DNA of 35,686 nt from assembly GCA_003644395.1 (NCBI GenBank), contig QNCF01000001.1, positions 1 through 35,686 of the forward strand, written 5' to 3'. This document shows, piece by piece, positions 2 through 25,225 of this stretch. Position 1 is the first letter of the stretch. Every line of letters starts with the position of its first letter. The notes below the pieces were generated by a model. That model made no database searches. It saw nothing but the letters and a program-made list of their open reading frames with translations, and was not told where the DNA came from. This DNA is from Candidatus Omnitrophota bacterium. GTDB lineage: Bacteria > Ratteibacteria > UBA8468 > B48-G9 > JAFGKM01. Both the position numbers and the translations under genes were made by a program.

Positions 2-115
2 AATATTGAATTATTCTTAAAAGGGAACAATCTCCTTGATACCTATTATGAAGAATTTTACTCTTATGGAACTGAAGGGAGAAGTATTTATGGTGGTTTA
101 ACAGTAAGATTCTGA
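2..115 (+). CDS. TonB-dependent outer-membrane receptor, C-terminal fragment (5' end lies outside the window)
   Basis: An open frame runs in from the window edge: NIELFLKGNNLLDTYYEEFYSYGTEGRSIYGGLTVRF-stop. A final beta-strand ending in a terminal Phe is the classic C-terminus of TonB-dependent receptors. The stop TGA (113-115) overlaps the ATG of the next gene (TGATG). It is absent from the ORF track because it has no start codon in the window. Confidence 0.55.
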   Translation, partial: NIELFLKGNNLLDTYYEEFYSYGTEGRSIYGGLTVRF

Positions 116-990
116 TGAGGAAATTTTTATTAATTTTATTTTCAGCTATATTTTTATATGGACAGAATTATAAAAGGGTTGTCTCTCTTGGACCATATAT
201 CACAGAAAATCTCCATCTTCTCGGAATAGATAAGGAGATAATTGGAGTAACGATACATGAGAGAGAAGAAAGGAAAAAGGGGAAGGAAATTATAGGGACT
301 TTATTGCAGCCAAATACTGAAAAAATCCTTTCCCTTAAACCAGATTTGGTAATAGCATCCAAGGAAGGAAATACACGCCAGAGTGTGGAGAAACTCAAAT
401 CTGTGGGATTGAAAGTTGTGGTAACTGGAGAAATATTTAATTTCAAGAGTATATGTGATAATTTTCTTTATTTGGCAAGGATTTTTAATAAGGAGAAGAC
501 TGGAAAAGAAATTGTAAAAAGGGAAAAGGAAAGACTGGAAAGATTAAAAAAGTTTTTTTCTAAATACAGAACGAAAAAGGTCTTCTTCTGCCTTGGAATA
601 AAACCACTTTTCACAGCAGGGGGTAAATCCTATATAGATGAAATGATAAGATTTGCAGGAGGTAAAAATATTTTTGGAGATATTAAAAGGAAATACATTC
701 CGGTAAGTTTTGAAGAAGTTATTAAAAGGGACCCTGATGTTATCATTCAGGTGAAAATGGGTTCTGACTTTTTATGGAATAAATTTGAGAATTTAAAAGC
801 TGTAAAAAATAATAGAGTTTTTAAAGTTGAACCAACCCTCTTCTGCAGTCCAACCCCGAAAAGTTTTGTTGATGCAGTTGAAAAGATTGGTAGATTAATC
901 CACGGAGAGAAAATTAAAGATGAAAAAATTAGTTATTTTAATTTTACTGGTGATTTTAAGTATAATTGCAGGTATTTGTTTAGGCTCTGA
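115..990 (+). CDS. Periplasmic substrate-binding protein of a BtuF/FhuD-type (cobalamin / iron-siderophore / heme class) ABC importer
   Basis: 291 aa with a signal-like N-terminus MRKFLLILFSAIFLYG. The blocks RVVSLGPYITENLHLLG, EIIGV and LKPDLVIAS are typical of this binding-protein class. It sits in an operon with a FecCD permease and an ATPase. The last 71 nt overlap the permease ORF. Confidence 0.75.
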   Translation: MRKFLLILFSAIFLYGQNYKRVVSLGPYITENLHLLGIDKEIIGVTIHEREERKKGKEIIGTLLQPNTEKILSLKPDLVIASKEGNTRQSVEKLKSVGLKVVVTGEIFNFKSICDNFLYLARIFNKEKTGKEIVKREKERLERLKKFFSKYRTKKVFFCLGIKPLFTAGGKSYIDEMIRFAGGKNIFGDIKRKYIPVSFEEVIKRDPDVIIQVKMGSDFLWNKFENLKAVKNNRVFKVEPTLFCSPTPKSFVDAVEKIGRLIHGEKIKDEKISYFNFTGDFKYNCRYLFRL

Positions 991-1873
991 ATTCCTCTCT
1001 CCTTTAAAGATTTTTAAGATAAAGTATCTTGAAGATTTTGAAAGGAAGATAATATTTGATTTAAGATTACCCCGTGTGATGGCTGGATTTTTCACAGGAG
1101 GTGGACTTGCAATTACAGGTGCTGTTTTACAGGGACTTTTAAAAAATCCACTTGCAGAAAGTTATACACTTGGAATTTCTGGAGGAGCGTCTTTGGGGAT
1201 ATGTATAGGTGTGATAATTGGTAAATACCTGTGCATCCCTTTATTTGGATTCATTGGCGGAATTATAAGCACACTCATAATTGTAATTGCTGGCTCAAAA
1301 AAGAATTTATCAAATCCTTCACTGATATTGCTTGGAGTAATCTTAAATTTCATCTTCTCTTCTTTTGTCCTTTTTATCCTTGCGATATCTGAAAGGGAAA
1401 GATTCCAGCAGAGTTTTTTCTGGCTTATTGGAGACCTTTCTTATTTTCCATATTTTCTTTTTAAACCAGCCATACTTATAATTCTGTTTTTCTCCATTTT
1501 CATCCTGACTTTTTCAAGGCAACTTGACATCATAAGCATTGGAGAAGAAAAAGCAAAAACCCTTGGAGTTGAAAGCGAGAAAGTTAAAAAGATACTTTTT
1601 ATTTTTTCTTCAATAATAACAGGAAGTTGTGTGAGCCTTGGAGGTATGATAGGGTTTGTCGGTCTTATCGTTCCTCATATTTCAAGAATATTTTTTGGTT
1701 CAGCCCATTTAAAAATTCTTCCTGTAAGTTTCATTCTTGGAGGGTGTCTTCTTACTCTTGCTGATACAATTGCAAGGACTGTAATAAGTCCGATTGAAAT
1801 CCCTGTTGGTGTAATAACGAGCCTTTTTGGTGGATTATTTTTCCTCTTCCTTCTTTTAAGGAAAAAGACCTGA
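920..1873 (+). CDS. FecCD/BtuC-family ABC transporter permease
   Basis: 317 aa, multi-TM. Family blocks: LRLPRVMAGFFTGGGLAITGAVLQGLLKNPLAESYTLGISGGASLG and GMIGFVGLIVPHISR. Confidence 0.85.
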   Translation: MKKLVILILLVILSIIAGICLGSEFLSPLKIFKIKYLEDFERKIIFDLRLPRVMAGFFTGGGLAITGAVLQGLLKNPLAESYTLGISGGASLGICIGVIIGKYLCIPLFGFIGGIISTLIIVIAGSKKNLSNPSLILLGVILNFIFSSFVLFILAISERERFQQSFFWLIGDLSYFPYFLFKPAILIILFFSIFILTFSRQLDIISIGEEKAKTLGVESEKVKKILFIFSSIITGSCVSLGGMIGFVGLIVPHISRIFFGSAHLKILPVSFILGGCLLTLADTIARTVISPIEIPVGVITSLFGGLFFLFLLLRKKT

Positions 1874-1874
1874 T

Positions 1875-2663
1875 ATGGAAGAGATTTTGAAAGTTGATGG
1901 AATTAATTGTGGTTATGGTAAAAAGCCTGTTCTTAAGAATATCTCTTTTTCGGTAAAAGAGGGAGAAATTGTTGGAATTATAGGGCCAAATGGTTCTGGT
2001 AAAACAACTCTTGCAAAAGTGATAAGCAGAAATCTGAAACCTTACAGTGGATATGTTTATTATAAAGGGAAAGATATATTCAAACTCCATCCAATTTTAT
2101 TTTCAAGACAAATTGCCTATCTACCATCAGATTTTGAGATTTATTTCCCTTATTCTGTTGAGGAATTTGTAAGCATGGGCAGATTTCCATACACAGGTAG
2201 ATTTGGAACTCTAAAAAAGGATGACAGGGAAGCAATTAATGAGAGTCTGCATCTTCTTGATATTTTCAATCTTAAGGACAGGAATGTTCAGGAACTTTCT
2301 GAAGGAGAAAAGCAAAGAGTCTTCCTTGCACAGGTCATTGCACAGCAGACTCCTCTTCTTCTTCTTGATGAACCTGTTTCTCATCTTGATATAGGATATA
2401 AATTCTCAATAATGGATTTATTGAAAAGGTTGAATAAAGAAAGAGGTATTACTGTTTTGATAATTCTCCATGACCTAAACCTTGCATCTGAATACTGTGA
2501 CAGGCTGATTCTTCTGCATAAAGGTTGTATTTATAAAGATGGAAGTCCTGATGAAGTTTTGGAATACAAGATTATTGAAGAAGTTTATGAAACAAAAGTC
2601 CTTGTATACAAAAATCCCTTCACAAATAGACCATATGTATTTGGAATACCTGAAAAAATTTAA
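1875..2663 (+). CDS. ABC transporter ATP-binding protein (FepC/BtuD-like)
   Basis: 262 aa with Walker A GPNGSGKTT, ABC signature LSEGEKQRV, Walker B LLLLDEP and H-loop ILHD. It starts 1 nt after the permease stop. Confidence 0.9.
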   Translation: MEEILKVDGINCGYGKKPVLKNISFSVKEGEIVGIIGPNGSGKTTLAKVISRNLKPYSGYVYYKGKDIFKLHPILFSRQIAYLPSDFEIYFPYSVEEFVSMGRFPYTGRFGTLKKDDREAINESLHLLDIFNLKDRNVQELSEGEKQRVFLAQVIAQQTPLLLLDEPVSHLDIGYKFSIMDLLKRLNKERGITVLIILHDLNLASEYCDRLILLHKGCIYKDGSPDEVLEYKIIEEVYETKVLVYKNPFTNRPYVFGIPEKI

Positions 2664-2688
2664 TAAAAATTGAGAAAGAAATTATAAT
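2660..2688 (+). promoter_or_regulatory. Possible sigma70-type promoter ahead of the six-paralog operon
   Basis: TTAATA (2660-2665), a 17 nt spacer, then a perfect TATAAT (2683-2688). The SD GGAGGTGGAGG follows at 2700-2710. The -35 is weak, and the AT-rich background makes chance matches likely. Confidence 0.25.
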
Positions 2689-2710: not shown

Positions 2711-4090
2711 ATGAAAAGTGCTATTTATGAAAAAGTTGGTGTAAAGATTGTTTATGGAGCTCTTGTCCATAAAGGAACCCATGAAGGACCATGCAGAATA
2801 GGAGATAAAAAATCTTTATCTCTGGAGAATGAAAGAAAATTGGCTAAAGAGGATTTTTCAAATTTTGTAAAAGAAGTGGAAAGGAATATAAATAAGGAAT
2901 ATGCTGAACTGCTGGAACCTGTTTATATTGAATACTTTGAGGATTTCATTATAAAAGAGAGCGAATTTAAAAAATTAGAAAAAGATCTGGAAAATGTTGA
3001 TTTATTTCTTTTAAAAGGAAGAATCCCTGGCATTGAAAGGTATAAAAAACCTGTTTGTATGATTGGTAAGGGAGTGACAAATGTTGATGTTTCAGCATAT
3101 ATGAGAAGCAGAGGGTTTGAGGGTTACGCAATTTTTGATTTTAACCATCTTAATGATTTAATTTATCTGCTTAAAGTTAGAAAATCAATTAAAAAAACAA
3201 AAATATTGAGAATATCCGGTGGTGAAGAAATACCATGGGGAGTTGTAAGCAGTATATATGATTTTGAAAAAATTAAAGATAAATATGGAACAGAAGTTAA
3301 AACAATTCTTTTTGATGAGTTTTTTGGAGAAATGGAAGAAATAGAGAAAAAAGAAACAGAAGAGGCTGAAAAGATTTACAGTAAACTGGTTAAAGAAGCA
3401 GTAAAGGTACATATGAAGAAGGAAGATATAATTGGCAGTATTTATTTTTATTTAACAGCAAGAAGTTTAATGGGGAAATTTAACTGTAATGCTTTTACCT
3501 GCTCCTGTTTTGAACTTTGCAGTACACAGATTCCTGAAAAGAAAAAATTTACTCCATGTCTTACCCACACTCTTTTGAAAGATGAAGGGTTTCCCTCTTC
3601 CTGTGAAGAAGATATAAGTGTACTTCTGGCTATGGCTATTTTAATGTATCTTTCAAAAAAATCTTCTTACATGGGAAATCCTTATGTTGTGGATAAAAAC
3701 ATTTTAAGGATAATTCACGATGTTCCTGGAATAAAAATGAAAGGACTTGATAAAGAACCACTTCAATATGAAATAAGAAATTTTACAGTTGCTGGATGGG
3801 GAGTAAATATAAGGTATGATTTTTCTCAGGATAAAGGAGAAAAAGTTACACTTGCAAGATTTGATCCGCTTGGTGAAAAAATCCTCGTTGTGAAAGGGGA
3901 GATATTGAAAGGATTGAATTTCAATGAGATTGGATGTTCCTTAGGTGTTGAAATTAAAGTATCTGATGCAATGGAATATTTCAATAAGGCTGGAGATTTT
4001 GGCCACCACCTTGCCATGGTTTACGGAGATTATACAGAAAAGATTAAAAAACTTGCCAGATTGATGGATTTTGAAGTTGTTGAAGTTTAA
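2711..4090 (+). CDS. AraA/FucI-superfamily isomerase-like protein, paralog 1 (Asn-type)
   Basis: 459 aa, with SD GGAGGTGGAGG directly upstream. Core motifs: FTCSC, TPC-x14-CEED-x21-N (SSYMGNPYV), IIHDVPG, IGCSLGVEIKV, GHHLAMVYGDY. The CExD...MGN...H pattern aligns with the AEGD...FMED...H catalytic core of E. coli L-arabinose isomerase (recalled from memory). Confidence 0.7.
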   Translation: MKSAIYEKVGVKIVYGALVHKGTHEGPCRIGDKKSLSLENERKLAKEDFSNFVKEVERNINKEYAELLEPVYIEYFEDFIIKESEFKKLEKDLENVDLFLLKGRIPGIERYKKPVCMIGKGVTNVDVSAYMRSRGFEGYAIFDFNHLNDLIYLLKVRKSIKKTKILRISGGEEIPWGVVSSIYDFEKIKDKYGTEVKTILFDEFFGEMEEIEKKETEEAEKIYSKLVKEAVKVHMKKEDIIGSIYFYLTARSLMGKFNCNAFTCSCFELCSTQIPEKKKFTPCLTHTLLKDEGFPSSCEEDISVLLAMAILMYLSKKSSYMGNPYVVDKNILRIIHDVPGIKMKGLDKEPLQYEIRNFTVAGWGVNIRYDFSQDKGEKVTLARFDPLGEKILVVKGEILKGLNFNEIGCSLGVEIKVSDAMEYFNKAGDFGHHLAMVYGDYTEKIKKLARLMDFEVVEV

Positions 4091-4111
4091 TGGTTAAAAA
4101 AGGGGGTAATT

Positions 4112-5437
4112 ATGGATGGTGAGAAAAGTAAAAAGGTGCTTTACATTCAGATATTCGGGAATAAAACTGAAAATGTTGAAAAAGCAAAAAAGGAAATAAA
4201 AGAAATAGCAGGAGATATTGTTGAATTTTTGCCTGATGTTATTTTTGATAAAAAGATACCTTCAGATATCTCTCCTTATTTAAATATAAAAACAGATATT
4301 GTTGTGCCTTTATTTCTGGGACTTGATGTTGAACCATTTGCTTACATAAAAAAACCAATCATTTTATGGACAGAGGGCGGGTATTATGGAGCATGGTCAA
4401 AAGACCTCAATTCTTTTTTAACCTTAAAGGGAGCAGAAGTTTACCAGTTTATAACTCCATCTGAGGCCAGAGAGACATTGAAAGTTTTAAGAACAAGAAA
4501 AAGAATGAGTAAAAGTAAAATTTTATATTTTGGAGAAATGGCAGGAACAACTGCTCACAGAGACCTTTCTGGAGTGATAGGTTCTGACTGGAATCTGGAA
4601 AGGGTAAAGGATGTTTTTGGGTGCATCGTTAAACAGATACCGATGGATTATCTCTTAAAAGAAGTGGATAAAGTGAATCTGGATTCAGCAAAAGAAGAAT
4701 TTAAAGAATGGGAAGATAAAGTTGAGGATTTTGGAGATATAAGCAAAGATGGTTATCTGGAGGTTGTAAAATTTTATCTTGCAATGAAAAAAATATTAAA
4801 AGAACAGGATGCAGATGCATTAACAATAAACTGTTTATCAGATTTATTTAAGAAAAAATTCATTACACCATGCCAGGCTCTTGCAAAACTGAACGATGAA
4901 GATATACCAGCAGGTTGCGAAGGTGATCTGAACGCCTTGCTTACAATGATGGTTTTCCATTATACAACAGATACTCCTTCCATTATGGGAAATATTTATC
5001 TTTTCAGACCGGAAAATGGGCCTGGATTTCCACCTCCTGAAGTCAGAGTTGCTGATGCAAAAGAATACCTTTCTCAAAATAAAGCAAGATTCACTCATGA
5101 TGTAATTCCATTGAGAATTGCAAAAAGCAAATATTTTCTCACCACTTATCACAACAGTGGTAAAGGAATAACAGGATATGCTGAATTACCAAAAGGTGAA
5201 ATAACTGTTGCAAGAATAGGCCCAGAAGCAAATAGAATGGTGATTACAACTGCTGAAATTGTAGAAGTTGAAAAATCTGGACATTGTTCATTCTCTGCTT
5301 ATTTAAAAATGAAAAACCTTGAAGAATATCTGAGGCAAACATCATCAATTCACAATGTAATCACTTATGGGAACCATATAAGCGAAATAAAAAAATTGGG
5401 AAAAATAATGAATCTTAAAGTTGTTGAAATTGGATAG
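4112..5437 (+). CDS. AraA/FucI-superfamily isomerase-like protein, paralog 2 (Asn-type)
   Basis: 441 aa, SD GGGGG. Core motifs: LTINC, TPC-x14-CEGD-x21-N (PSIMGNIYL), FTHDVIP, GHCSFSAYLKM, IHNVITYGNH. Closest in motif wording to paralog 5. Confidence 0.7.
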   Translation: MDGEKSKKVLYIQIFGNKTENVEKAKKEIKEIAGDIVEFLPDVIFDKKIPSDISPYLNIKTDIVVPLFLGLDVEPFAYIKKPIILWTEGGYYGAWSKDLNSFLTLKGAEVYQFITPSEARETLKVLRTRKRMSKSKILYFGEMAGTTAHRDLSGVIGSDWNLERVKDVFGCIVKQIPMDYLLKEVDKVNLDSAKEEFKEWEDKVEDFGDISKDGYLEVVKFYLAMKKILKEQDADALTINCLSDLFKKKFITPCQALAKLNDEDIPAGCEGDLNALLTMMVFHYTTDTPSIMGNIYLFRPENGPGFPPPEVRVADAKEYLSQNKARFTHDVIPLRIAKSKYFLTTYHNSGKGITGYAELPKGEITVARIGPEANRMVITTAEIVEVEKSGHCSFSAYLKMKNLEEYLRQTSSIHNVITYGNHISEIKKLGKIMNLKVVEIG

Positions 5438-5450
5438 AAAGGAAGAAAAA

Positions 5451-6812
5451 ATGAAAGAATTAAATGTAAAGCCACTCCTTATTTATCAACTCCCTGAGAG
5501 AAAAAAACAGAGGAGCTGGCGTCCATGGGGAGGTATACAGACAGAGGATGATTTAAAGGAAGAGATAAATAGAATCAATAAAGAAATTGAAGAATTATTA
5601 CATAAAATAGAATTCCCGTGCAGGATATTGCCATTAACTCCAATTGACAGAAAAGATAAAATAGACAGCCAGGAGATTAATTATTCAGATGTTCTGTTAA
5701 TTTATGCAGCAGGTGGTTCTGTAGATATTTTAGATAAATTAACTTCTTATGGGAAACCTGTTATCTTTTTTATAAGGCATAGATCTGGGCCGATTTATTA
5801 CTGGTATGAAGTTATCCACCCGACTTTTCTCCGTAGAAAGACTGATGATATTTCAAGAGGAGATGTTGGTGTAGAAGATATAGTTATAGATGATTATGAT
5901 GAGATCTTATGGAGGTTAAGAAGCATTTATGGTTTAAAAAATACGATAGGGAAAAGGATAATTGCTGTAGGAGGGCCTTCTGGATGGGGAGAAATTTCTG
6001 GAAGAGATGCACCTTTTCTTGCAAGGAAGATATGGCACCTTGATATAATAGATTTTCCTTATCCAGAACTTGGAGAAAGAATAAAAAAAGAAAAGAATAA
6101 AATTTTAAATGAATGCGAAAGGAAAGCCAGAGAGTATCTCCAGCAGGGAAATATCACTCTTGAGACAGATGAGAAATTTGTAATAAATTCTTTTCTTCTT
6201 TATAAAATTTTTAAAGATTTATTGATTGAATACAAATCCGATGCAATAACAATAAATTACTGTATGAATACTATTATGCCTTTAGCAGAAACTACAGCCT
6301 GTCTCCCTTTGAGTTTACTCAATGATGAGGGATACCTCGCTTTCTGTGAATCAGATTTTGTTGTTATACCATCCGGTATCCTTTTACATCATATTTCAGG
6401 TAAACCAGTATTTCTTAATGACCCGACAACTCCTCATAATGGAATAGTAACTCTTGCTCATTGTACAGCACCGAGAAAGATGGATGGGAAAAATTATGAA
6501 CCAGCAAAAATAGTTACGCATTTTGAATCGGATTATGGAGCATCCCCAAAAGTTGAATTCAAAAAAGGACAGCAAGTAACAGTAATAGTTCCTGATTTCA
6601 GTGGAAAGTTATGGATAGGGTTTAAAGGGAAAATACTGGAATCCCCTTCCTTCCCTATATGCCGTTCTCAAGTAGAGGTGGAAATAGAAGGAGACTGGAA
6701 GAAATTATTGCAGAAGATGAGGGGATTTCACTGGATGATGTGTTATGGAGATTACCTGAAAGAAGTCGGATATGCATTGAAAAAAGTTGGTATAAAATTT
6801 GAAATTGTTTAA
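5451..6812 (+). CDS. AraA/FucI-superfamily isomerase-like protein, paralog 3 (Asp-type)
   Basis: The track ORF starts at TTG 5421. I prefer ATG 5451 (MKELNVKPLL), which follows AGGAAG. Core motifs: ITINYC, TAC-x14-CESD-x21-D (VFLNDP), LAHCTAP, ICRSQVEVEI, GFHWMMCYGDY. Closest to paralog 4. Confidence 0.7.
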   Translation: MKELNVKPLLIYQLPERKKQRSWRPWGGIQTEDDLKEEINRINKEIEELLHKIEFPCRILPLTPIDRKDKIDSQEINYSDVLLIYAAGGSVDILDKLTSYGKPVIFFIRHRSGPIYYWYEVIHPTFLRRKTDDISRGDVGVEDIVIDDYDEILWRLRSIYGLKNTIGKRIIAVGGPSGWGEISGRDAPFLARKIWHLDIIDFPYPELGERIKKEKNKILNECERKAREYLQQGNITLETDEKFVINSFLLYKIFKDLLIEYKSDAITINYCMNTIMPLAETTACLPLSLLNDEGYLAFCESDFVVIPSGILLHHISGKPVFLNDPTTPHNGIVTLAHCTAPRKMDGKNYEPAKIVTHFESDYGASPKVEFKKGQQVTVIVPDFSGKLWIGFKGKILESPSFPICRSQVEVEIEGDWKKLLQKMRGFHWMMCYGDYLKEVGYALKKVGIKFEIV

Positions 6813-6823
6813 TGGAGGAAAAG

Positions 6824-8200
6824 ATGGAATTAAGAATTTTAATTATTAAACCACCAAAACAATACCTTTCTGAAAAGGAGAGTGAAAAAGGTTATTGGGG
6901 ATTTGTAAGGTGTAAGAAGGATTATGAGGAGGAAAAAGAAAATATAAATAAGGAATTTAAAAATCTGGTCGGATCAATTAAAAAAGAAGGTATAGAGGCA
7001 AATCTTCTGCCAGCAATAGAAGTTGAAAATATAAGTGATTTATTAAAAAAAGAGAAAGAGATTAAAAAATCTGATGTAAATATAGTCTTAACAATATCCT
7101 GGGGTGGATGGTATTCCTGTGGAGATTTAATACATGGAATAGTTGCTTTATCAGATTATGTGATTTTCTATGATAGTTTTAAGGAGAATATATATGCGGG
7201 AACATTATTTAATCCACCTGCTTATAAATTGCTTGAAAAAAATGGACTTTCAGAAAAAATTTTTCTTGTGGAGGGAGATAAAGAGAAGATAAAAATTATT
7301 CTGAGAGCAATCTATTCATTAAAGAAAATTTCATCTTCAAATCTTGTATGTGTTGGCCCAATGAATCCACTGTTTGGAGGATGGTTTTCTTTTAAAAAAG
7401 GGACTGAAACTTTCGGGTATAAAACTGTATTCTACACATACGATGAATTTGTTGAGGATTTCAATAATTTCATGAAAGATAAGGATAAATGTAAAGAAGC
7501 AAAAAGAGTGATTGAAGAATTCATATCAAACTCAGAAGGAGTTATTGAACCAACAGAAGAAAAACTTCTCAGGGCGGGAATATACTACCTTGTTTTAAAG
7601 AAATATGTGGAGGAAAATGAATCTGATTGGATAACAGTAAACTGCTGGGGTAAACTTATTGAGACAACAGAATCCACACCATGTTTTGCATTTTCAAAAT
7701 TTAATGATGATGGAATAGTTGCAACATGTGAAGCCGACCCAACTGCCATGATTACCCATTATCTTATGAGACATATTTCCGGAAAACCAGCATTTTTTAA
7801 TGACCCAACTGTAAATGAAAAAGATGGAACACTTATACTTGCCCACTGCACCTCTCCAACAAAACTTCTTGGATTCAGTAAACCTCCATTTTCTTATCAA
7901 GTGAGAACACACCATGAATCAAATTATGGAGCAACTCCAAAACTTATATTTAAAGAAGGTAATGTGACAGTAACTGGATTATCTTTTGATATGGAGAAAA
8001 TGCTTATTTTAAAAGGAGAAGTTATTGGCAGTCCTGATTTAAGGATATGTCGGTCTCAGGTGGAGGTAAAAGTGAATAATCCATCAGAAATACTTGAGGA
8101 CTGGCAGGGTTTCCACTGGGTGCTTGTGTATGGAGACTATACTGAAGAGATGGAGATAATCTGCAAGATAAAGAAGATAAAAGGAATTGTTTATAAATAA
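6824..8200 (+). CDS. AraA/FucI-superfamily isomerase-like protein, paralog 4 (Asp-type)
   Basis: The track ORF starts at ATG 6812, which overlaps the upstream TAA. ATG 6824 (MELRILII) sits 5 nt after GGAGG and is the better start. Core motifs: ITVNC, TPC-x14-CEAD-x21-D (AFFNDP), LAHCTSP, ICRSQVEVKV, GFHWVLVYGDY. Confidence 0.7.
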   Translation: MELRILIIKPPKQYLSEKESEKGYWGFVRCKKDYEEEKENINKEFKNLVGSIKKEGIEANLLPAIEVENISDLLKKEKEIKKSDVNIVLTISWGGWYSCGDLIHGIVALSDYVIFYDSFKENIYAGTLFNPPAYKLLEKNGLSEKIFLVEGDKEKIKIILRAIYSLKKISSSNLVCVGPMNPLFGGWFSFKKGTETFGYKTVFYTYDEFVEDFNNFMKDKDKCKEAKRVIEEFISNSEGVIEPTEEKLLRAGIYYLVLKKYVEENESDWITVNCWGKLIETTESTPCFAFSKFNDDGIVATCEADPTAMITHYLMRHISGKPAFFNDPTVNEKDGTLILAHCTSPTKLLGFSKPPFSYQVRTHHESNYGATPKLIFKEGNVTVTGLSFDMEKMLILKGEVIGSPDLRICRSQVEVKVNNPSEILEDWQGFHWVLVYGDYTEEMEIICKIKKIKGIVYK

Positions 8201-8210
8201 GGAGGAGAAA

Positions 8211-9536
8211 ATGAAAGTAAGTATCCAGCCTGTAAATTTAATACCACCTCAAAAAGATATCTCTCAACTTCCAGTTTTAAGGGTGGAGACATGGATAAAG
8301 GGGCCAAAAAAACCAAGAAATTTAAAAAGAATAAAAGAGATACCACCGGAAGATGTAAGTATTGAAAAACTCTGTGAAAAGTTTGACTTTTTGGAAATTC
8401 TTCCTCCCGAAAATATCAGAAAAGTAAGCGATATTGATGGACTTAAAAGGGATGTATCTGCTTATATCATAAGCGGTTATGACCTTGCATTAGCAGGGGA
8501 GATAGCTAAACTTGGAAAGCCAGTTTTACCTTACTGGGATAACTGGGGATATGCATGGAATGGAAGATGGATAAAGGAAGCCAGTGATGAAGCTGGTGGA
8601 GTATGTTTCGTCCCATTTGGTTCTGAAGATATTGAGAAAATTATAAGAGTTTTAAGAGCATATACCTTCATAAGGGAAATGAGAGTATTATATATAGGAG
8701 ATATACCTTCAAACAGTGTTAAAGATGCAAATTATGATTTTACAGACCTTGAAACCAGATTTGGAATACAGTTTATCCACCTGAATTTTGATGATTTATT
8801 AAAAGCAGTTGAAAAAATAAGTGATGAAGAGAGTGGAAAAATAGCAAATCTCTGGAAAGAAAATGCAGAGATTCTTGATGGAAGAGAAAAAAGACTTAAA
8901 GATTATGCAAAAATATATTTGGGATTGAAAAAATTACTGGAGGAATACAATGCCAATGGTTTAACAGTTGATTGTGCTTTTTTACCGAATGTTGAACTTG
9001 TCCCATGTTATTCTTTTGGAATTCTGATAGATGAAGGGATACCATGTGGATGTGAAGGAGATACATCTGCTCTTTTGGGAATGAGCATACTTATGGGTTT
9101 ATCAGGAAAATCTGCATTAATGGGAAACTTATTTGAAAATAATACACATGATGATATTGAAAACAATGTAATTGTAATAAACCATGATGTTGTCCCTCCT
9201 TCTATGGGAGATGGGAAAGAAAAGATAAAATTGAGAGATTTCCATGCATCTAAAAAAGGGCTTACAGGATTTGTAAAACTTAAGGAAGGTGAGAAAGTAA
9301 CTATTGTTGGAATGGACAGGAAAGCAAGAAGAATCTGGTATAGCGAAGGCGAAATTTTATGGACAGAAGATACAGTCCATTGCAGAACAAGTATCGGTAT
9401 AAAAGTAAAAGATGCAAAAAGAATTGGAAAAGAAAGTTTTGGTCATCATCAGGCAATCTCTTATGGAAACCTATGTGATGAAATTGAAATGCTTGGAAAA
9501 ATATTTAAAATAGAAACCATAAATTTAGGAAAATGA
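8211..9536 (+). CDS. AraA/FucI-superfamily isomerase-like protein, paralog 5 (Asn-type)
   Basis: The track ORF starts at TTG 8187. ATG 8211 (MKVSIQP) follows GGAGGAG. Core motifs: LTVDC, VPC-x14-CEGD-x21-N (SALMGNLFE), INHDVVP, VHCRTSIGIKV, GHHQAISYGN. Confidence 0.7.
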   Translation: MKVSIQPVNLIPPQKDISQLPVLRVETWIKGPKKPRNLKRIKEIPPEDVSIEKLCEKFDFLEILPPENIRKVSDIDGLKRDVSAYIISGYDLALAGEIAKLGKPVLPYWDNWGYAWNGRWIKEASDEAGGVCFVPFGSEDIEKIIRVLRAYTFIREMRVLYIGDIPSNSVKDANYDFTDLETRFGIQFIHLNFDDLLKAVEKISDEESGKIANLWKENAEILDGREKRLKDYAKIYLGLKKLLEEYNANGLTVDCAFLPNVELVPCYSFGILIDEGIPCGCEGDTSALLGMSILMGLSGKSALMGNLFENNTHDDIENNVIVINHDVVPPSMGDGKEKIKLRDFHASKKGLTGFVKLKEGEKVTIVGMDRKARRIWYSEGEILWTEDTVHCRTSIGIKVKDAKRIGKESFGHHQAISYGNLCDEIEMLGKIFKIETINLGK

Positions 9537-9547
9537 GGAGGGGGAAA

Positions 9548-10858
9548 ATGGAAAAGGCGAAGGTAAAAGTTGTATTTCCAGCAGTTGAAAAAGGGCATCC
9601 TACCTGGCCATATATAAATTATGATGTTGAGAAAAGGGCAAAAGATGTGATGAGTATTCTGGAAAAGCAATTGCCTGAAATTGAATTTTCTTACCATGTT
9701 ATTTATGAAAAAGAGAAGGCAAAAAAATTGGTTGAGGAAGAAAAGGGAAGATATGATGGATATTTAGTCTATATGACATCAATGTGGACAGAAATACCGG
9801 AAACAATGGCGAAGATGGGAATCCCTTTAATTGTTGCAGATGAAATCTATTCTGGCTCTGGAGGATTGCTCAGAACAAACTCACTTGTAAAAAAAGAAAA
9901 TTTACCTGTTGTCTGTATTGGCTCTTCAAATTTCAATGATATTATAAAGGCTGTAAAATTATTTTCTGTAATGAAGAGGATGAGAGAATCAAAAATTCTT
10001 GTTGTTGCAGATGGGGAATCATGGGGAAGCAGCAATAGAAAGATAAAAAAGATAAAGGAAATTTTTGGAACAGATGTGATAAGAATGACTTCAGAGGAAT
10101 TAAATTCATATTATAAAAAAGTTGATAAAGAAAAGGCAGAAAAATATAAGGATAAATGGATAAAAGAAGCGCTGAAGGTTGTTGAACCCACAGAAGAAGA
10201 GATATTAAAATCAGCAAAAATGCATCTGGCAATTAAAAAAGCAATGGAAGATAAGAAAGCAGATGCAATAACAATTGATTGTCTTGGACTCTATTATTCC
10301 GGTAAACTTTTTGCTTATCCATGCCTTTCTTTCTTTGAATTAAATAATGAAGGTTCAACAGGTGTATGTGAGGCAGATTTAGATTCTGCAGTAACACAGC
10401 TTTTAATAAGGTATTTAACAGGAAGACCCGGTTATGTTTCTGACCCTGTCATTGATACCGCAACAAACCAGATAATTTATGCTCACTGTGTGGCAACCAG
10501 TAAAGTTTATGGCCCTGATGGTTTAAGCAATCCATATATAATACGTTCACATGCAGAAGACAAAAAAGGTGCATGTGTCCAATCACTATTACCGACAGGG
10601 GAGACAGTAACAACAGTTAAAGTGAGTTCCTTAGATAAAGCATTCTCTATACATACAGGTAAAACAATTGGGAATGTTGAGGATGAAAAGGGATGCAGAA
10701 CAAAACTGGCAGCAGAAGTTGATGCAGAAAAAATACTTAATAATTTCCATTTTGAAATATTTTCCTGGCACAGGGTAACTTTTTATGGAGATTACAGAAA
10801 AGAAATGATGGATCTTGCAACTCTTTATGGACTTAAAATTTATCAGGAAGATAAATAA
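9548..10858 (+). CDS. AraA/FucI-superfamily isomerase-like protein, paralog 6 (Asp-type)
   Basis: The track ORF starts at ATG 9533, which overlaps the upstream TGA. ATG 9548 (MEKAKVKVV) follows GGAGGGGG. Core motifs: ITIDC, YPC-x14-CEAD-x21-D (GYVSDP), YAHCVAT, KGCRTKLAAEV, SWHRVTFYGDY. Confidence 0.7.
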   Translation: MEKAKVKVVFPAVEKGHPTWPYINYDVEKRAKDVMSILEKQLPEIEFSYHVIYEKEKAKKLVEEEKGRYDGYLVYMTSMWTEIPETMAKMGIPLIVADEIYSGSGGLLRTNSLVKKENLPVVCIGSSNFNDIIKAVKLFSVMKRMRESKILVVADGESWGSSNRKIKKIKEIFGTDVIRMTSEELNSYYKKVDKEKAEKYKDKWIKEALKVVEPTEEEILKSAKMHLAIKKAMEDKKADAITIDCLGLYYSGKLFAYPCLSFFELNNEGSTGVCEADLDSAVTQLLIRYLTGRPGYVSDPVIDTATNQIIYAHCVATSKVYGPDGLSNPYIIRSHAEDKKGACVQSLLPTGETVTTVKVSSLDKAFSIHTGKTIGNVEDEKGCRTKLAAEVDAEKILNNFHFEIFSWHRVTFYGDYRKEMMDLATLYGLKIYQEDK

Positions 10859-10874: not shown

Positions 10875-11639
10875 ATGGATAGATTAATAGCAGGTATCCA
10901 GCTTTACACATTAAGGGGATTTTGCAAAGATTTAAAGGGGATAGAGGAGACTTTTAAAAAGATAAGGAAAATAGGATACAGGGCTGTACAGATTTCAGGT
11001 ATAGGAGAGATTGATTTTAAAGAGTTGAAGAAAATCCTTGATGATAATGGATTGTATGCATGTTCAACTCACACACCTTATGAGAGAATAATAAATGAGA
11101 CTGAAAAAGTTATTGAAGAGCATAAAATACTGGGATGTGAAGGTATTTTCTGCCCTGGGCTTCCAAAGGAATTAAGAAAAGGGAAAGAAGGATATCTGGA
11201 AGCAGCGAAAGAGTTCAAGAAAGTTATCAAAAAGATAAAGAAGGAAGGTCTTATCCTTGGATACCATAACCATGGCGTGGAATTTGAAAGATTTGGTAAA
11301 AAGACAGGACTTGAAATTTTACTTGATGGATGTAAAGAACTTGAAGTTGAAATTGATACATACTGGGTGCAGTATGGAGGAGGAGACCCTGCATACTGGA
11401 TAGAAAAATATTCAGGTAGAGTAAGCCAGATACATTTAAAGGATATGGGAATAATTGATAATAAACAGGTTATGCCTCCAATCGGTGAAGGGAATTTAAA
11501 CTGGGAAAGGATTATAAAAGCATGCAGGAAGGCAAAAGTTAAATATTGTCTTGTTGAGATTGATGAACCAACAATAGAACCATTTGAAGCAATTGAAAGG
11601 AGCCTTAAATTTTTGAAAAAATTTGGAATAAAGCCCTAA
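10875..11639 (+). CDS. Xylose-isomerase-like TIM-barrel protein (sugar phosphate isomerase/epimerase family)
   Basis: 254 aa, SD GGAGGGG. Typical family blocks: IQLYTLR near the N-terminus, GYHNHGVEF, VEIDTYW, IHLKD, LVEIDEP (metal-ligand-like E/D/H/E pattern). It is the last gene of the + operon. Confidence 0.75.
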   Translation: MDRLIAGIQLYTLRGFCKDLKGIEETFKKIRKIGYRAVQISGIGEIDFKELKKILDDNGLYACSTHTPYERIINETEKVIEEHKILGCEGIFCPGLPKELRKGKEGYLEAAKEFKKVIKKIKKEGLILGYHNHGVEFERFGKKTGLEILLDGCKELEVEIDTYWVQYGGGDPAYWIEKYSGRVSQIHLKDMGIIDNKQVMPPIGEGNLNWERIIKACRKAKVKYCLVEIDEPTIEPFEAIERSLKFLKKFGIKP

Positions 11640-12823
11640 ACTTTATTTTTTAATTTTTTGATAAGAACAGGTATTATTTCAAAGAGGTCTCCAACAATTC
11701 CAAGATTTGCCACTTTAAAGATTGGTGCATCCGGGTCTTTATTTATGGCTATTATATAATCTGAAGTCTGCATCCCTGCAAGATGCTGGATTGCTCCTGA
11801 TATTCCACATGCTATATAAACTTTTGGTTTAACAGTCTTTCCAGTCTGACCAACCTGATGAGGATATCCTATCCATCCTGCATCAACTGCTGCACGTGAA
11901 GCCCCAACAGCGCCACCAAGCAATTCAGCAAGTTCCCATATCATTGAAAAGTTTTTACCATCCCTCAATCCCCTGCCTCCAGATACTATTATTTCTGCCT
12001 CCTGTAAATCCACAACATTTTTTGTCATTTCCCTTTTTATAATCTTCACCCTTTTATTTACAGAAAATGATGAAAATTCTTCAATTATCAATTTCCCATC
12101 AGGGTTATCCTTAATTTTTGCTTCTTCAATAATTTTTGGTCTTATTGTTGCCATCTGGGGTCTGTGGTCTCTGCATACTATCTTTGCCATAAGATTCCCA
12201 CCAAATGTTGGCCTTATCTGTACAAGGAGTTTACTTTCATTATCAATATCTATTCCTGTACAGTCAGCTGTAAGCCCTGTTCCAATCCTTGCAGCGACTG
12301 ATGGAATGAAAGACCTTCCAGCCATTGTTGCTGAAGCAAGCAAGATAGAAGGTTTATATCTTTCAATAAGCTGGGAAAGGATATCAATATATGGTTCTTC
12401 CTGGAATTCTTCAAGTGAATCATCTTTCACAATATAAACTTTTTCCGCTCCCCTTTTTATAAGTTCCCTTCCCATCTCCTCAACATTCTTTCCGCCAATA
12501 ATAACCCCTGATACTTCTTCACCCAGTTTTTCTTTCAATTTCAAACATGCATTTAAAAGTTCAAAAGAGACAGATAACAATTTTCCTTTCTTTTGTTCTG
12601 CAAAAAACCATATCCCTTTATATTTTGATATATCTTTTTTCCTTTCCTTCTCTACAATTAAAATTGCATTTTGAGGACACTCCTTAACACATATACCGCA
12701 AAGCCTGCAATTCTCATTTATTACAATCTTTCCCTCTTTTTCCTCAATTCCACCGAATGGACATTTCTCAATACAGATTCTGCAAAGATTACATTTTTCA
12801 TAAAGAATTTTTATTCCCATCAC
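11636..12823 (-). CDS. etfA: Electron transfer flavoprotein alpha subunit with an N-terminal 2x[4Fe-4S] ferredoxin domain
   Basis: 395 aa. Two CxxCxxCxxxCP motifs (CNLCRICIEKCP, CRLCGICVKECP) are followed by the EtfA body: VSGGRGL, ASRAAVDAGW, QVGQTGKTVKPKVYIACGISGAIQH. There is a 4-nt start/stop overlap with etfB. Confidence 0.85.
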   Translation of the reverse strand: MMGIKILYEKCNLCRICIEKCPFGGIEEKEGKIVINENCRLCGICVKECPQNAILIVEKERKKDISKYKGIWFFAEQKKGKLLSVSFELLNACLKLKEKLGEEVSGVIIGGKNVEEMGRELIKRGAEKVYIVKDDSLEEFQEEPYIDILSQLIERYKPSILLASATMAGRSFIPSVAARIGTGLTADCTGIDIDNESKLLVQIRPTFGGNLMAKIVCRDHRPQMATIRPKIIEEAKIKDNPDGKLIIEEFSSFSVNKRVKIIKREMTKNVVDLQEAEIIVSGGRGLRDGKNFSMIWELAELLGGAVGASRAAVDAGWIGYPHQVGQTGKTVKPKVYIACGISGAIQHLAGMQTSDYIIAINKDPDAPIFKVANLGIVGDLFEIIPVLIKKLKNKV

Positions 12824-13611
12824 AATATACCCTGTTTTTTAAGTTCTTTTAAAATCTCATCTGCCATTTCTTCTGCACTCCCGCTTAATTTTCTTCCCTC
12901 TTTCTTCACCGTATGTTTCCAGATATCAATAACCCTTGTCGGTGAACCATCCTGTCCAAATCTCTCCTCATCTCCACCAATATCTTTTGCACCCCATTTT
13001 TTTATCTCTGCTTTTTTTGATTTTAAAAGCCCTTTAAGTGATGGTATCCTTGGCTCATTTATTTCTTTAACAACTGTAATTAAAACAGGTAGAGGACTTT
13101 TCAGTATTTCGTAATGGTCCTCAAGCAATCTTTTACATTCAATCTGGTTATTCTCTATGTTTATTATCTGACTCACATATGTGATAAATGGGATTTTCAA
13201 ATTTTCAGCAATTTCAGGCCCAACCTGTCCTGTACTCCCATCCATTGCTTCTTTCCCACATATGATGATATCAAAATTACCTATTTTTTTAATTGCACAG
13301 GAAAGTGTATATGAAGTAGCCAGTGTATCACTTCCAGCAAATTTCATATCTGTAAGTAATATAGCATCATCCACACCCATTGCTATTGCCTCCCGTAATG
13401 CACTTTCTGCCTGAGGAGGACCCATTGATATGGCTATTGTCTCTCCACCAAATCTCTCCTTCAATCTCAAACCCTCTTCAATTGCATACATATCATATGG
13501 ATTTATAATTCCTTTCACACTATCCCTCTTTATCCTTTTTGTCTCATTATCAATTTCAACTTCAAAAGTCTCAGGAACCTGTTTGATACAGACTATTATT
13601 CTCATCGTCAC
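12820..13611 (-). CDS. etfB: Electron transfer flavoprotein beta subunit
   Basis: 263 aa with RIIVCIKQVP, AISMGPPQA, KFAGSDTLATS and CGKEAMDGSTGQVGP. There is a 4-nt overlap with the upstream MocA gene. Confidence 0.85.
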   Translation of the reverse strand: MTMRIIVCIKQVPETFEVEIDNETKRIKRDSVKGIINPYDMYAIEEGLRLKERFGGETIAISMGPPQAESALREAIAMGVDDAILLTDMKFAGSDTLATSYTLSCAIKKIGNFDIIICGKEAMDGSTGQVGPEIAENLKIPFITYVSQIINIENNQIECKRLLEDHYEILKSPLPVLITVVKEINEPRIPSLKGLLKSKKAEIKKWGAKDIGGDEERFGQDGSPTRVIDIWKHTVKKEGRKLSGSAEEMADEILKELKKQGIL

Positions 13612-14585
13612 TTAACTGATTTGTAAACCATCTCTGTTAATCTTACAACTTTTTCAATAACTGAAAAATCTGTATTTGGTTTTTTATTATTCCTTATGCA
13701 TTCTATAAAATCCTCTGCTGGAGTTTTAACAGAAGGAGATATTTTCCTTATAGGGGAGGGGGATTTCTCACCATTGATATGTATATAGGAATCTTCTCCT
13801 GCACTGCTAACTTTAATAACTCCCTTTTCTCCCCATATAAGCAGTGCTTCTCTAAATCCAGGGTCTATCCCCAGAATTCCAAAATTTCCTATAGCACCCT
13901 CTTTAAATTTCACTATGAATGATGTGTTTATATCCACCTTCATACCACGGTAATCAATGAAAGAATATACATCAGAAGGTGTCAAATCTGTAAGGAAAAA
14001 TAACATTGCAAGGAAATGGCTTCCTGAATCCATAAGCTGTCCGCCACCTGATATTTCAGGGTCAAACCTCCATGTTCTTTTTGTCCTTTTTATAAGTTCA
14101 ATCCATCCCTGAGCAAGGTATCCACATACAAAAATTATCTTTCCAATCCTTCCATTTTTAATCTCCTCTCTTGCTCCAAGGAAAGTTCCGAGATAATGCC
14201 TCTGGTATCCAACAACAAACACCTTTTTCTTTTCCTCAAGTAATCTTTTAACTTCAGATAGTTCTTCAGAATTTATAACTGCAGGCTTTTCAACAAGAAT
14301 ATGTAAATTATTCTCTAAGGCAAGTTTAATCTGTGGAAAATGGTATTTATGTGGTGAGCATATTACAACTCCATCAATATTGCCACTTTTAATAATTTCT
14401 TCCTCTGAAGAATATATCCTTACATTCCCTGCATCTTTTGAAAACCTTTCAGAATTCCCTTTATCAGGGTCAAAAACTCCTGTTATTTTTACTCCATCAA
14501 TATTCTTCAGTACCTCCAGATGTTTATATGCTATTGAACCACACCCTATAAATCCAATCCTTATTTCATCATTTTTCTGGCACAT
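13608..14585 (-). CDS. Gfo/Idh/MocA-family NAD(P)-dependent oxidoreductase
   Basis: 325 aa with the N-terminal Rossmann motif IGFIGCGSIA, the EKP motif (ILVEKPAV) and a typical C-terminal alpha/beta domain. The start overlaps the upstream gene by 17 nt. Confidence 0.8.
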   Translation of the reverse strand: MCQKNDEIRIGFIGCGSIAYKHLEVLKNIDGVKITGVFDPDKGNSERFSKDAGNVRIYSSEEEIIKSGNIDGVVICSPHKYHFPQIKLALENNLHILVEKPAVINSEELSEVKRLLEEKKKVFVVGYQRHYLGTFLGAREEIKNGRIGKIIFVCGYLAQGWIELIKRTKRTWRFDPEISGGGQLMDSGSHFLAMLFFLTDLTPSDVYSFIDYRGMKVDINTSFIVKFKEGAIGNFGILGIDPGFREALLIWGEKGVIKVSSAGEDSYIHINGEKSPSPIRKISPSVKTPAEDFIECIRNNKKPNTDFSVIEKVVRLTEMVYKSVK

Positions 14586-17861: not shown

Positions 17862-17889
17862 ATTTTAAACCATTTAAAATTTTTGTCAA
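17862..17889 (-). promoter_or_regulatory. Possible sigma70-type promoter for the kinase-to-etfA sub-operon
   Basis: Read on the minus strand: TTGACA (17889-17884), a 16 nt spacer, then TAAAAT (17867-17862), ending 19 nt before the kinase ATG. The -35 hexamer contains the TGA stop of the upstream gene. No SD lies between the -10 and the ATG. Confidence 0.35.
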
Positions 17890-18947
17890 TCCTTGCTTCT
17901 TTTAACTTTATATGGTAAAAGCCATCTTTTCCTTCTTATAAATGGTTCGTTTTTAAACCTCTGCTCAACAATACCTGCTTTTTCTAAGAAATTGAAACAA
18001 CTTCTCATGCAACCTCTGGAACCGCATATTCCGTAACTTCCTCCAACTCCCCATTTCTGTAAATAGGCATGCCCTTCAATTATATAACCTGACGGGAATT
18101 CTTCTGTCTTCCTCCATTTACCTGTGGAAAGACTCCAGCAGAATTTGTAAGCAGCTTCTTCTGAAAAATTCTGCTTCCTTGCATCTATGTTCCATCCTGG
18201 AAAGGATTTGTGGATGAAAGGAGAGACTCTTGAATCACCACCGTGATAACTTAAAGTGCATTTTCCAAGGTCAATATCTGCCCATTCATAAGTATAATTT
18301 TCTATCTTTATACTTACTTTTTTTCCTTCTTTTATGTGTGGTATTGCATTTGAAGGACAACCTTTAACACATTCCATACACCTTTTGCATATACTTCCAG
18401 GTTTTACAAGAGGGTCTGGTTCAACTTCAAGGTCTGTGATTATAGCATGCAATCTCTGTCTTGGCCCATATTTTTTTGTCAAAAAAACTTTGCTCCATCC
18501 AATCTCTCCAAGGCCAGCACAGACTGCTGCTATTCTTATTGCAAGATGGACATCTGGAGGTGGCTGATTTTCTCTCAATGGCTTTCCAGGTGGTTTCGCT
18601 TCAGGAACTCCTGAATAGTAAGGAACTGCTTCATATCCATAATCTTCAATGAAACAGGCAAGTTCATATAATGGGAGCTGGATGAAAAATGAGTTTAAAA
18701 GTCCATGGTAATCAAAATAAGTATAGGATACCCAGTTTGTCCCCTCCTCAATTCCGCGCCAGCCTCCCCTTAATATCCTTTTCCCCACAACTATGACTGT
18801 CTTTGCTTCTGGAAAAATACTTTTTGGATGCATATCTACTGGAGCATTTTCAAATCTTTCAATATTTGCAAAACCTATAAGGTCAAGTCCAAGTGAATAT
18901 GCAACCTCTCTTATTTTTTCTTTTGTCAATCTTTTTCCCATTTCCAC
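17886..18947 (-). CDS. QueG / reductive-dehalogenase-superfamily Fe-S protein (single module, long C-terminal extension)
   Basis: 353 aa. The block AAVCAGLGEIGWSKVFLTKKYGPRQRLHAIITDLEVEPDP, followed by CKRCMECVKGCPSNAI, matches the AGLGxxG...GxxxR...CxxCxxCxxxCP core of epoxyqueuosine reductase and RdhA-like proteins. Further Cys (CTLSYHGG, CGSRGCMRSC) could form a second cluster. Confidence 0.65.
   Translation of the reverse strand: MEMGKRLTKEKIREVAYSLGLDLIGFANIERFENAPVDMHPKSIFPEAKTVIVVGKRILRGGWRGIEEGTNWVSYTYFDYHGLLNSFFIQLPLYELACFIEDYGYEAVPYYSGVPEAKPPGKPLRENQPPPDVHLAIRIAAVCAGLGEIGWSKVFLTKKYGPRQRLHAIITDLEVEPDPLVKPGSICKRCMECVKGCPSNAIPHIKEGKKVSIKIENYTYEWADIDLGKCTLSYHGGDSRVSPFIHKSFPGWNIDARKQNFSEEAAYKFCWSLSTGKWRKTEEFPSGYIIEGHAYLQKWGVGGSYGICGSRGCMRSCFNFLEKAGIVEQRFKNEPFIRRKRWLLPYKVKRSKD
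18774..18830. repeat. 57-bp near-identical tract shared with 19601-19657 (copy A)
   Basis: tatccttttccccacaactatGactgtctttgcttctggaaaaatactttttggatg. It is 56/57 identical to copy B and encodes HPKSIFPEAKTVIVVGKRI on the minus strand. The flanking sequence is diverged. Confidence 0.9.
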
Positions 18948-24785: not shown

Positions 24786-25225
24786 TTCTCAAGTTTTTTT
24801 ATTTTATTAACCCTCCGCAGATGCCTGCCTTTAAGGAAAGGTGTCTCAAGAAAAACTTTTGTTATTTCCCATGCAAGTTCCTTTGCAATTATACGCCCAC
24901 CAAATGTAATAACATTTGCATCATTATGTTCTCTTGCAAGTTTGGCAAGGAAAGTTGAATTGCATAAAGCAGCCCTTACACCTTTAAATTTATTTGCTGT
25001 TATGCTCATTCCAATACCTGTTCCGCATATAAGGATACCCCTTTCAATCTCTCCATCAGAGATACTCTTTGCAACTTTCACTCCATAATCAGGATAATCA
25101 ACTGCTTTTTTAAATTCCGGCCCAAAATCAATCACCTCATATCCTTCTTTTTTAAGTTTATCTTTAAGATATTCTTTTATCTCAAATCCAGCATGGTCAC
25201 TTGCTATCCCTACTTTCATAAACAT
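24782..25225 (-). CDS. rpiB: Ribose-5-phosphate isomerase B (RpiB/LacAB family)
   Basis: 147 aa with MKVGIASDHAGFEIKEYLK and ILICGTGIGMSITANK. The true start may be the second Met, at 25219. Confidence 0.85.
   Translation of the reverse strand: MFMKVGIASDHAGFEIKEYLKDKLKKEGYEVIDFGPEFKKAVDYPDYGVKVAKSISDGEIERGILICGTGIGMSITANKFKGVRAALCNSTFLAKLAREHNDANVITFGGRIIAKELAWEITKVFLETPFLKGRHLRRVNKIKKLEK

Follow-up and report, generated by a model that had tools for sequence, protein, structure and literature searches.

Why would a bacterium keep six divergent genes of one enzyme fold back to back on the same strand? The question is raised by a stretch of 35,686 nucleotides (nt) from a Candidatus Omnitrophota bacterium (contig QNCF01000001.1, positions 1 to 35,686), which we refer to, at its full length, as “the window”: six consecutive genes of this stretch, here called P1 to P6, encode proteins with the fold that is shared by L-arabinose isomerase (AraA) and L-fucose isomerase (FucI). 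An earlier note, made from the letters of this DNA, had described the six genes and had proposed for them either a heteromeric, possibly hetero-hexameric, assembly or a multi-step cascade. The answer that we favour, with a probability of about one half, is that a battery of separate metal-dependent aldose-ketose isomerases is co-transcribed from this locus, accompanied by a TIM-barrel enzyme; the isomerase chemistry, the differing substrates, the homo-oligomeric assembly and the co-transcription are the parts of this answer that we infer. The array itself is real and unusual in degree; on present evidence, it is no new kind of molecular machine or system.

Layout and age of the array

Genes P1 (2711-4090), P2 (4112-5437), P3 (5451-6812), P4 (6824-8200), P5 (8211-9536) and P6 (9548-10858) are open reading frames of 459, 441, 453, 458, 441 and 436 amino acids (aa), respectively, all on the plus strand, in exact agreement with the earlier note. 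The spacers from P1 to P6 measure 21, 13, 11, 10 and 11 nt, and each of the six ATG starts has its own GGAGG-like Shine-Dalgarno (SD) sequence, located 5-10 nt upstream, which confirms what the note had said of both. The next gene on the same strand (10875-11639) begins 16 nt past P6 and encodes a xylose-isomerase-like TIM barrel (Pfam family AP_endonuc_2, E-value 4e-19) that is weakly IolE-like; it is probably the seventh gene of the P1-P6 transcription unit. A promoter-like site (TTAATA-17-TATAAT, 2660-2688, plus strand), which agrees with the consensus at 10 of 12 positions, lies in the 47-nt gap before P1; it is weak evidence, because such sites are no more common in the region than in shuffled sequence. 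A search with a profile hidden Markov model of the six paralogs has found no additional family member within the window. Scans of the window for Rfam families and for tRNAs have returned no matches and thus, the regulation of the array is not explained by any riboswitch.

All 15 pairs of the six proteins are significantly similar by BLASTP (E-values from 3e-9 to 3e-49, 21-35% identity), P4 matching each of the other five at E ≤ 1e-21 and having P3 as its closest sister. The similarity is greater towards the C-terminus: mean pairwise identity is 19.5% in the N-terminal parts and 28.2% in the C-terminal parts, so that the N-terminal halves are indeed the more diverged, as had been noticed before. 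The alignment of the six paralogs contains 16 invariant columns, which include T263, C266, C283, C298, E299, D301, H336, C409, H433, Y438 and G439 (P1 numbering, used throughout). The C-terminal motif that the earlier note had written for all six is thereby confirmed, with two details in need of correction: P1 reads T-C-S-C in place of [ST][IV][ND]C, and the motif ends in H-x4-YG, not in H-x5/6-YG. At the level of DNA, no repeats have been found among the six genes, again as noted before; the best nucleotide matches are short and weak (at most 113 nt at 68%).

Outside the window, the orthologs of each paralog typically share 40-55% identity with it when cluster representatives are compared, and up to 60-70% in the nearest lineages. 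P1 orthologs (46-96% identity) come from many phyla; P4 orthologs are found at 41-85% and P6 orthologs at 43-78% identity, while the representatives of the P3 subfamily, many of which carry Tat-like (twin-arginine) leaders, share 44-55%. The P2 subfamily is the rarest, with just 28 homologs at E ≤ 1e-40; one relative of P2 (P0316, on a 28.6-kb contig) is 81% identical to it. For each paralog, its best sister in the array is outscored by 36 to 173 of the outside proteins that were collected, dozens of them from other phyla. Average-linkage clustering places the six paralogs in six separate clusters, each shared with other taxa or phyla, and the coarsest cut of the clustering leaves seven clusters in the entire collection; the array, therefore, comes close to one representative per major branch. 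Judged by their sequences, the six paralogs are an old, retained expansion and not a local, recent amplification, and here the earlier note was right: a recent tandem amplification is ruled out by the absent DNA similarity, together with the relatives abroad that are closer than those within the array.

The ratios of nonsynonymous to synonymous substitution rates (dN/dS) are 0.09 for P1 (against its relative at locus L033), 0.09 for P2, 0.16 for P3 and 0.11 for P4, i.e. P1-P4 are under strong purifying selection; decaying duplicates are ruled out by these values and by the retention of all catalytic positions. The P4 branch is also peculiar in its distribution: its orthologs are mostly archaeal, and the nearest relatives of P4 (60-71% identity) are almost all from Bathyarchaeia, Hadarchaeota, Thermoproteales and Marsarchaeota, whereas the window is bacterial by its gene content (TolQ, TolB and FecCD genes). 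A transfer of the P4 branch between the two domains is therefore suggested.

Fold, family and catalytic positions

The fold of the paralogs has been examined on a model of P4, which was built by AlphaFold2 from an alignment of P4 orthologs (predicted local distance difference test, pLDDT, 93; predicted template modelling score, pTM, 0.92) and submitted to a structural search by Foldseek. The model consists of two alpha/beta domains, followed by a C-terminal beta-rich domain, as in the AraA/FucI superfamily; all 41 matches at E ≤ 1e-3 are AraA, FucI or D-arabinose isomerase, and the next match outside this group is found at an E-value of 5e-3 and a template modelling (TM) score of 0.14. The same three-domain fold is seen in the AraA structures of E. 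coli (4f2d; E-value 9e-20, TM-score 0.75), G. kaustophilus (4r1p) and T. maritima (7cwv), with E-values of about 1e-19, the leading matches having an identity of 11-13%. The L-fucose/D-arabinose isomerase FucI (1fui, 4c20, 3a9r) belongs to the same fold family, with E-values of about 1e-14 and a query TM-score of about 0.72; the target TM-score against FucI is only about 0.57 because FucI is much longer. Since the P4 model matches all three domains and P4 is a homolog of each of the other five, the membership of P1-P6 in the AraA/FucI fold superfamily, which the earlier note had proposed from the arrangement of their motifs, may be taken as established on the strength of this model.

Profiles of the known families set the six proteins apart from each of them. 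For the Pfam family AraA_central, P5 alone is above the threshold (32.9 bits, cutoff 24), with 13-17 bits for P1, P2 and P6 and without match for P3 and P4. Set against AraA as a system, the central-domain profile is counted as weak in four paralogs and above threshold in P5. AraA proper has been rejected, since the best score against the NCBIfam AraA model is 41 bits (P5) for an equivalog cutoff of 622, and since the paralogs, at 436-459 aa, are approximately 40-60 residues shorter than AraA (about 500 aa). FucI proper, with about 590 aa, is 130-150 residues longer than the paralogs; it has been rejected on the basis of this length, of target TM-scores of 0.55-0.58 and of Fucose_iso_C, which is found in P1 only and under its cutoff (17.2 bits, cutoff 29.3), and no matches to Fucose_iso_N1 or Fucose_iso_N2 have been found in the six paralogs. 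Members of the family are labelled “L-fucose isomerase-like” or “fucose isomerase” by JGI and PGAP.

The closest characterised relative by profile is the sulfoquinovose isomerase SftI (NF048012), which is of similar length (443 model positions) and is the top NCBIfam model for all six paralogs, at 24-76 bits for a cutoff of 700 (P1, 54 bits, E-value 9e-15; P3, E-value 1.6e-5). For P2, the alignment to this model is confined to the central domain; for the other five paralogs, it extends over the C-terminal domain as well. SftI is a proven stand-alone aldose-ketose isomerase, encoded by a single gene, that also interconverts fructose 6-phosphate and glucose 6-phosphate (Frommeyer et al. 2020, PMC7491151), and the sft cluster contains, in addition, the 6-deoxy-6-sulfofructose (SF) transaldolase, a 3-sulfolactaldehyde (SLA) dehydrogenase or reductase, a sulfoquinovosidase and an exporter (PMC7491151). 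These partner families are not among the annotated genes of the window and, the scores being as low as they are, SftI proper has been rejected as well. By these profile comparisons, P1-P6 are members of a distinct, cysteine-marked clade that is neither AraA, FucI nor SftI; when 1.84 billion representative proteins are searched with a profile, this clade yields 1,041 clusters (at 50% identity) at E ≤ 1e-30, a number that rises to 2,504 at E ≤ 1e-10.

The signature of the clade has been tabulated over 299 full-length members from bacteria and archaea. Cysteines C283 and C298, as well as H336, are kept in all 299; H433 is kept in 298, D301 and C409 in 297, C266 in 295, T380 in 294 and E299 in 287 (96%). 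All six paralogs of the window, each with the complete cysteine tetrad, retain every signature position. The second acidic ligand position, a further point of difference from AraA, is occupied by Asn (215) or Asp (106) among family members, and two flavours can be distinguished: G-N together with H-D (P1, P2 and P5), and x-D together with H-C (P3, P4 and P6). In a comparison with the PDB, the six-paralog profile has found AraA at an E-value of 6e-5, the Glu of the CExD motif being aligned with the catalytic Glu of the AEGD (xEGD) motif of AraA and the C-terminal His with that of its GGHH motif, which bears out the correspondence that the earlier note had drawn between the two cores. H336 would be the equivalent of the AraA His by its order and spacing.

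A Tat-like N-terminal leader occurs in 32 of 293 full-length members (approximately 11%), all of the P1-, P3- and P6-type subfamilies (e.g. P0049, P0051, P0052, P0057, P0061, P0084, P0112 and P0115); the six paralogs of the window have no such leader. Several of the leaders contain a Cys-rich stretch (CC, CxCC or CCxC) ahead of the RR motif. Export by the Tat route, as predicted from these leaders, would be unusual for a protein of the AraA fold.

Solitary and clustered loci in other genomes

Our survey of other genomes covers about 120 loci, those of the P4 and P6 subfamilies being anchored through alignments of the respective orthologs. In about 25 of 29 loci, a P4 ortholog has no other family member in the 10 kb to either side, and these solitary orthologs adjoin, for example, GH42, GH38, GH31 or GH94 glycoside hydrolase (GH) genes and PfkB-type kinases. 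Among the 80 metagenome loci of P6 orthologs, 67 have one member, 10 have two, 2 have three and 1 has four; when the P6-anchored loci of at least 9 kb are considered, 29 are single and 7 are multiple. A P2 ortholog at 46% identity is solitary in five archaeal contigs (L118-L122), and the same is true of P1 orthologs in the few distant contigs that were inspected. When plasmids were searched by tBLASTN with P6 as the query, a single match was obtained, the “fucose isomerase” WP_237923544.1 of Bacteroides finegoldii (plasmid NZ_OY725936.1): this protein of 411 aa shares about 30% identity with P6 along 64% of its length, has the full signature (C...C...CEGD...N...HC...T...CR...H) and is encoded next to a glycoside hydrolase, by a single gene and not by an array. 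Because the P1, P2, P4 and P6 subfamilies are each the sole family member of the locus in many genomes, they must work without the others.

Two of the P1 settings deserve description in their own right. At L034:5511-8637 and L035, a P1 ortholog of 65% identity lies between mlaE and the mla ATPase gene of an otherwise standard Mla lipid-transport operon, which is an odd location for a sugar enzyme. In a Latescibacteria contig (L036/L037:7083-12516, one place in two records and counted once for URO-D), the P1 ortholog lies between URO-D genes, one of which starts 3 nt past it; genes of the URO-D family (uroporphyrinogen decarboxylase or methyltransferase-like) occur within 3 kb of family members in five loci, including L014, L062 and L116.

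Clusters of two to four paralogs are found in a minority of the loci and in varying combinations, such as P1-P4 in a metagenome-assembled genome (MAG) from Kiritimatiellae, P4 together with a gene like P6 in Caldivirga, and, in metagenomes, P1-P6 as well as P6-P5-P3; since the combinations differ between loci, co-location appears to be favoured, yet not obligatory. Among the loci surveyed, the window holds the biggest array, the maximum elsewhere being four members, and the six-gene form is neither conserved nor required.

The same can be seen at closer range, in relatives with about 85% DNA identity to the window, where MetE and MTHFR are followed by a 3' remnant of P5 that has decayed and contains stop codons, and then by P2-P3-P4-P1. 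The remnant (L007:4707-4780) lies directly upstream of P2, and the junction of P4 with P1 occurs in two independent samples (the contig ends of L007/L008 are compared here with positions 9476-9547 and 2697-2741 of the window). P5, reduced to its remnant, P6 and the TIM barrel have been dropped from the locus in these relatives. In a MAG from Calescamantes, the 3' end of P1 has 86% DNA identity with the window, and P1 is followed there by HSP20 and unrelated genes. Remnant and junction read as traces that recent reshuffling and gene loss have left in the array.

The genes that adjoin family members have been counted for 131 immediate neighbours in 98 non-redundant loci. The commonest is AP_endonuc_2, the TIM-barrel family (9), followed by the sugar-binding protein family Peripla_BP_4 (5), major facilitator superfamily (MFS) transporters and URO-D (4 each), GH28 and pectate-lyase-like proteins (3 each), and FGGY kinases, PfkB kinases, GH5, GH42 and GFO/IDH/MocA oxidoreductases (2 each). 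Enrichment is seen for glycoside hydrolases and sugar kinases as well as for TIM barrels, sugar-binding proteins and MFS transporters; as the 131 proteins match 139 families in total, no single partner is obligate. TIM-barrel genes can be found at a distance of up to 3 kb from family members in eight loci and GFO genes in six, and one locus (L116) brings a family member, a TIM barrel and a GFO/IDH/MocA gene together. The window has a GFO/IDH/MocA gene of its own, weakly IolG-like and with both Pfam and NCBIfam matches, in a unit that is convergent with the array (13608-14585, minus strand); it is possibly a functional partner of the array.

It is in this context that a multi-step cascade has to be considered, in which the six enzymes and the TIM barrel would act in sequence on one family of substrates, shifting a carbonyl along the chain or inverting several centres, as in a rare-sugar or inositol-like interconversion, and would be co-expressed for flux rather than for breadth of substrates. 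The tight spacing with an SD sequence for each gene would suit such a cascade, and so would the recurrence of clusters of two to four different subfamilies (P1-P6, P6-P5-P3, P1-P4), the recurring TIM-barrel and GFO/IDH/MocA partners, present with a family member in L116, and the weak likeness of the two window genes to IolE and IolG. A fixed cascade, however, should be co-conserved, whereas the close relatives lack P5, P6 and the TIM barrel at the locus; the combinations and orders also vary from locus to locus, and most members are solitary. We regard the cascade as a possibility on the unlikely side.

The remaining neighbours of the array are of other kinds. Upstream, 47 nt before P1, ends an ABC (ATP-binding cassette) transporter of BtuF, FecCD and ATPase components (115-2663, plus strand), of the vitamin B12, heme or siderophore class and not a sugar transporter. 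Convergent with the array, on the minus strand and downstream of the GFO/IDH/MocA gene, lies an electron transfer flavoprotein (ETF) pair (11636-13611), whose alpha subunit has an N-terminal 2x[4Fe-4S] ferredoxin domain (FixB-like). Upstream of the GFO/IDH/MocA and ETF genes, an 841-aa fusion (14569-17094, minus strand) combines an M28 peptidase/DUF4910 part with an aminoglycoside 3-N-acetyltransferase (Antibiotic_NAT). Three consecutive genes of 353, 277 and 738 aa (17886-21972, minus strand) match the Fe-S family of reductive dehalogenases (RDH) and epoxyqueuosine reductase (QueG) far under the cutoff, apparently with two modules of this kind in the 738-aa protein. These genes and the BtuF-like transporter lend the neighbourhood a corrinoid flavour. 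Further along, a 328-aa fusion joins Sua5/YciO/YrdC and low-molecular-weight phosphotyrosine phosphatase domains (25216-26202, minus strand).

Readings of the array

According to the reading that we favour, six isomerases from different ancient branches of the cysteine-bearing AraA/FucI-fold clade would be expressed together with the TIM barrel; each paralog would probably form its own homo-oligomer and act on a different sugar, and the six enzymes together would funnel scavenged monosaccharides into ketoses for further metabolism. Sugar isomerase chemistry is favoured by the fold in combination with the genomic context and with the catalytic set, which has been retained. The N-terminal motifs of the P4 subfamily, which are conserved inside it and missing from the other subfamilies, fit different substrate preferences, because AraA and FucI are hexamers in which the N-terminal domain of the neighbouring subunit helps to form the active site.

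Several observations weigh against the battery of isomerases. Genes for a sugar kinase, a sugar transporter or a glycoside hydrolase are found neither in nor beside the array of the window, the upstream ABC transporter being of the BtuF/FecCD type, and several of the solitary P1 orthologs stand in non-sugar contexts, i.e. in the mla operon and among URO-D genes. The solitary occurrence from which independent function is argued covers the P1, P2, P4 and P6 subfamilies, i.e. four of the six. Literature searches have returned no description of the clade, of assayed members or of such arrays. Lastly, at the three cysteine positions that allow an alignment, AraA carries Phe, Gly and Ala, i.e. no counterparts of the cysteines; the near-invariant cysteines hint at a chemistry or a use of metal beyond those of a plain Mn isomerase.

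This last point leads to a different chemistry, in which the cysteines would either be redox-active or hold an Fe-S cluster or a metal with thiolate ligands, and the enzymes would catalyse, for example, a dehydration or a redox-linked rearrangement. In the P4 model, three of the cysteines are located at strand ends or at a helix start of the central domain, near the catalytic Glu and where the active site of AraA lies, one of the tetrad (C298) immediately preceding the catalytic Glu; the fourth is placed at the start of a strand in the C-terminal domain, and all four may line the active site. The retention of C266, C283, C298 and C409 in 295-299 of the 299 bacterial and archaeal members, the residues found in their place in AraA, the Tat-like leaders of about 11% of the members, which are typical of proteins that are exported with their cofactor bound, and the prevalence of anaerobes or thermophiles among the hosts would all be consistent with such a chemistry. 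On the other side, the AraA-type Glu/Asp/His set is fully kept beside the cysteines, the spacing of the cysteines is that of no classical cluster motif, and the B. finegoldii member has the motif and yet adjoins a glycoside hydrolase, like an ordinary sugar enzyme. A chemistry of this kind seems improbable to us.

The hetero-oligomer of the earlier note, i.e. a mixed hexamer with active sites between unlike subunits, is quite improbable. It would draw on the textbook organisation of AraA and FucI, hexamers whose active sites include residues of the neighbouring subunit, on the six closely spaced genes with an SD sequence each and catalytic residues in all six products, and on a co-location of family members that exceeds what would be expected of unrelated genes. 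Against it stand the four subfamilies, out of six, that occur as the sole member of a locus, the relatives at about 85% identity, whose array has four differently ordered genes and a decayed P5, and the maximum of four members at any locus besides the window. The co-conservation that such an assembly would imply has failed to appear; since the orthologs are mostly solitary and the array of the relatives is different, an obligate hetero-hexamer is not supported.

Hardly probable at all is the conjunction of both ideas, in which the clade would be a new metallo-variant with an Fe-S or thiolate-bound metal by the Glu/His site and the six branches would, in addition, be co-expressed as mixed oligomers or as a channelled pathway for an undescribed multi-step sugar rearrangement.

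The AraA/FucI fold is a source of industrial rare-sugar enzymes, for example in the production of tagatose and, to our knowledge, few of its branches have been studied. The locus described here points to a large, unstudied branch of this fold, which is present in archaea and in bacteria, including the Bacteroides of the gut, with four fixed cysteines and, in some members, apparent export by the Tat route, and whose sub-branches tend to sit side by side. The host bacterium is heat-loving and uncultured, and the window offers thermostable representatives of six sub-branches within 8 kb, a handy starting set for the functions of the branch and of its cysteines.

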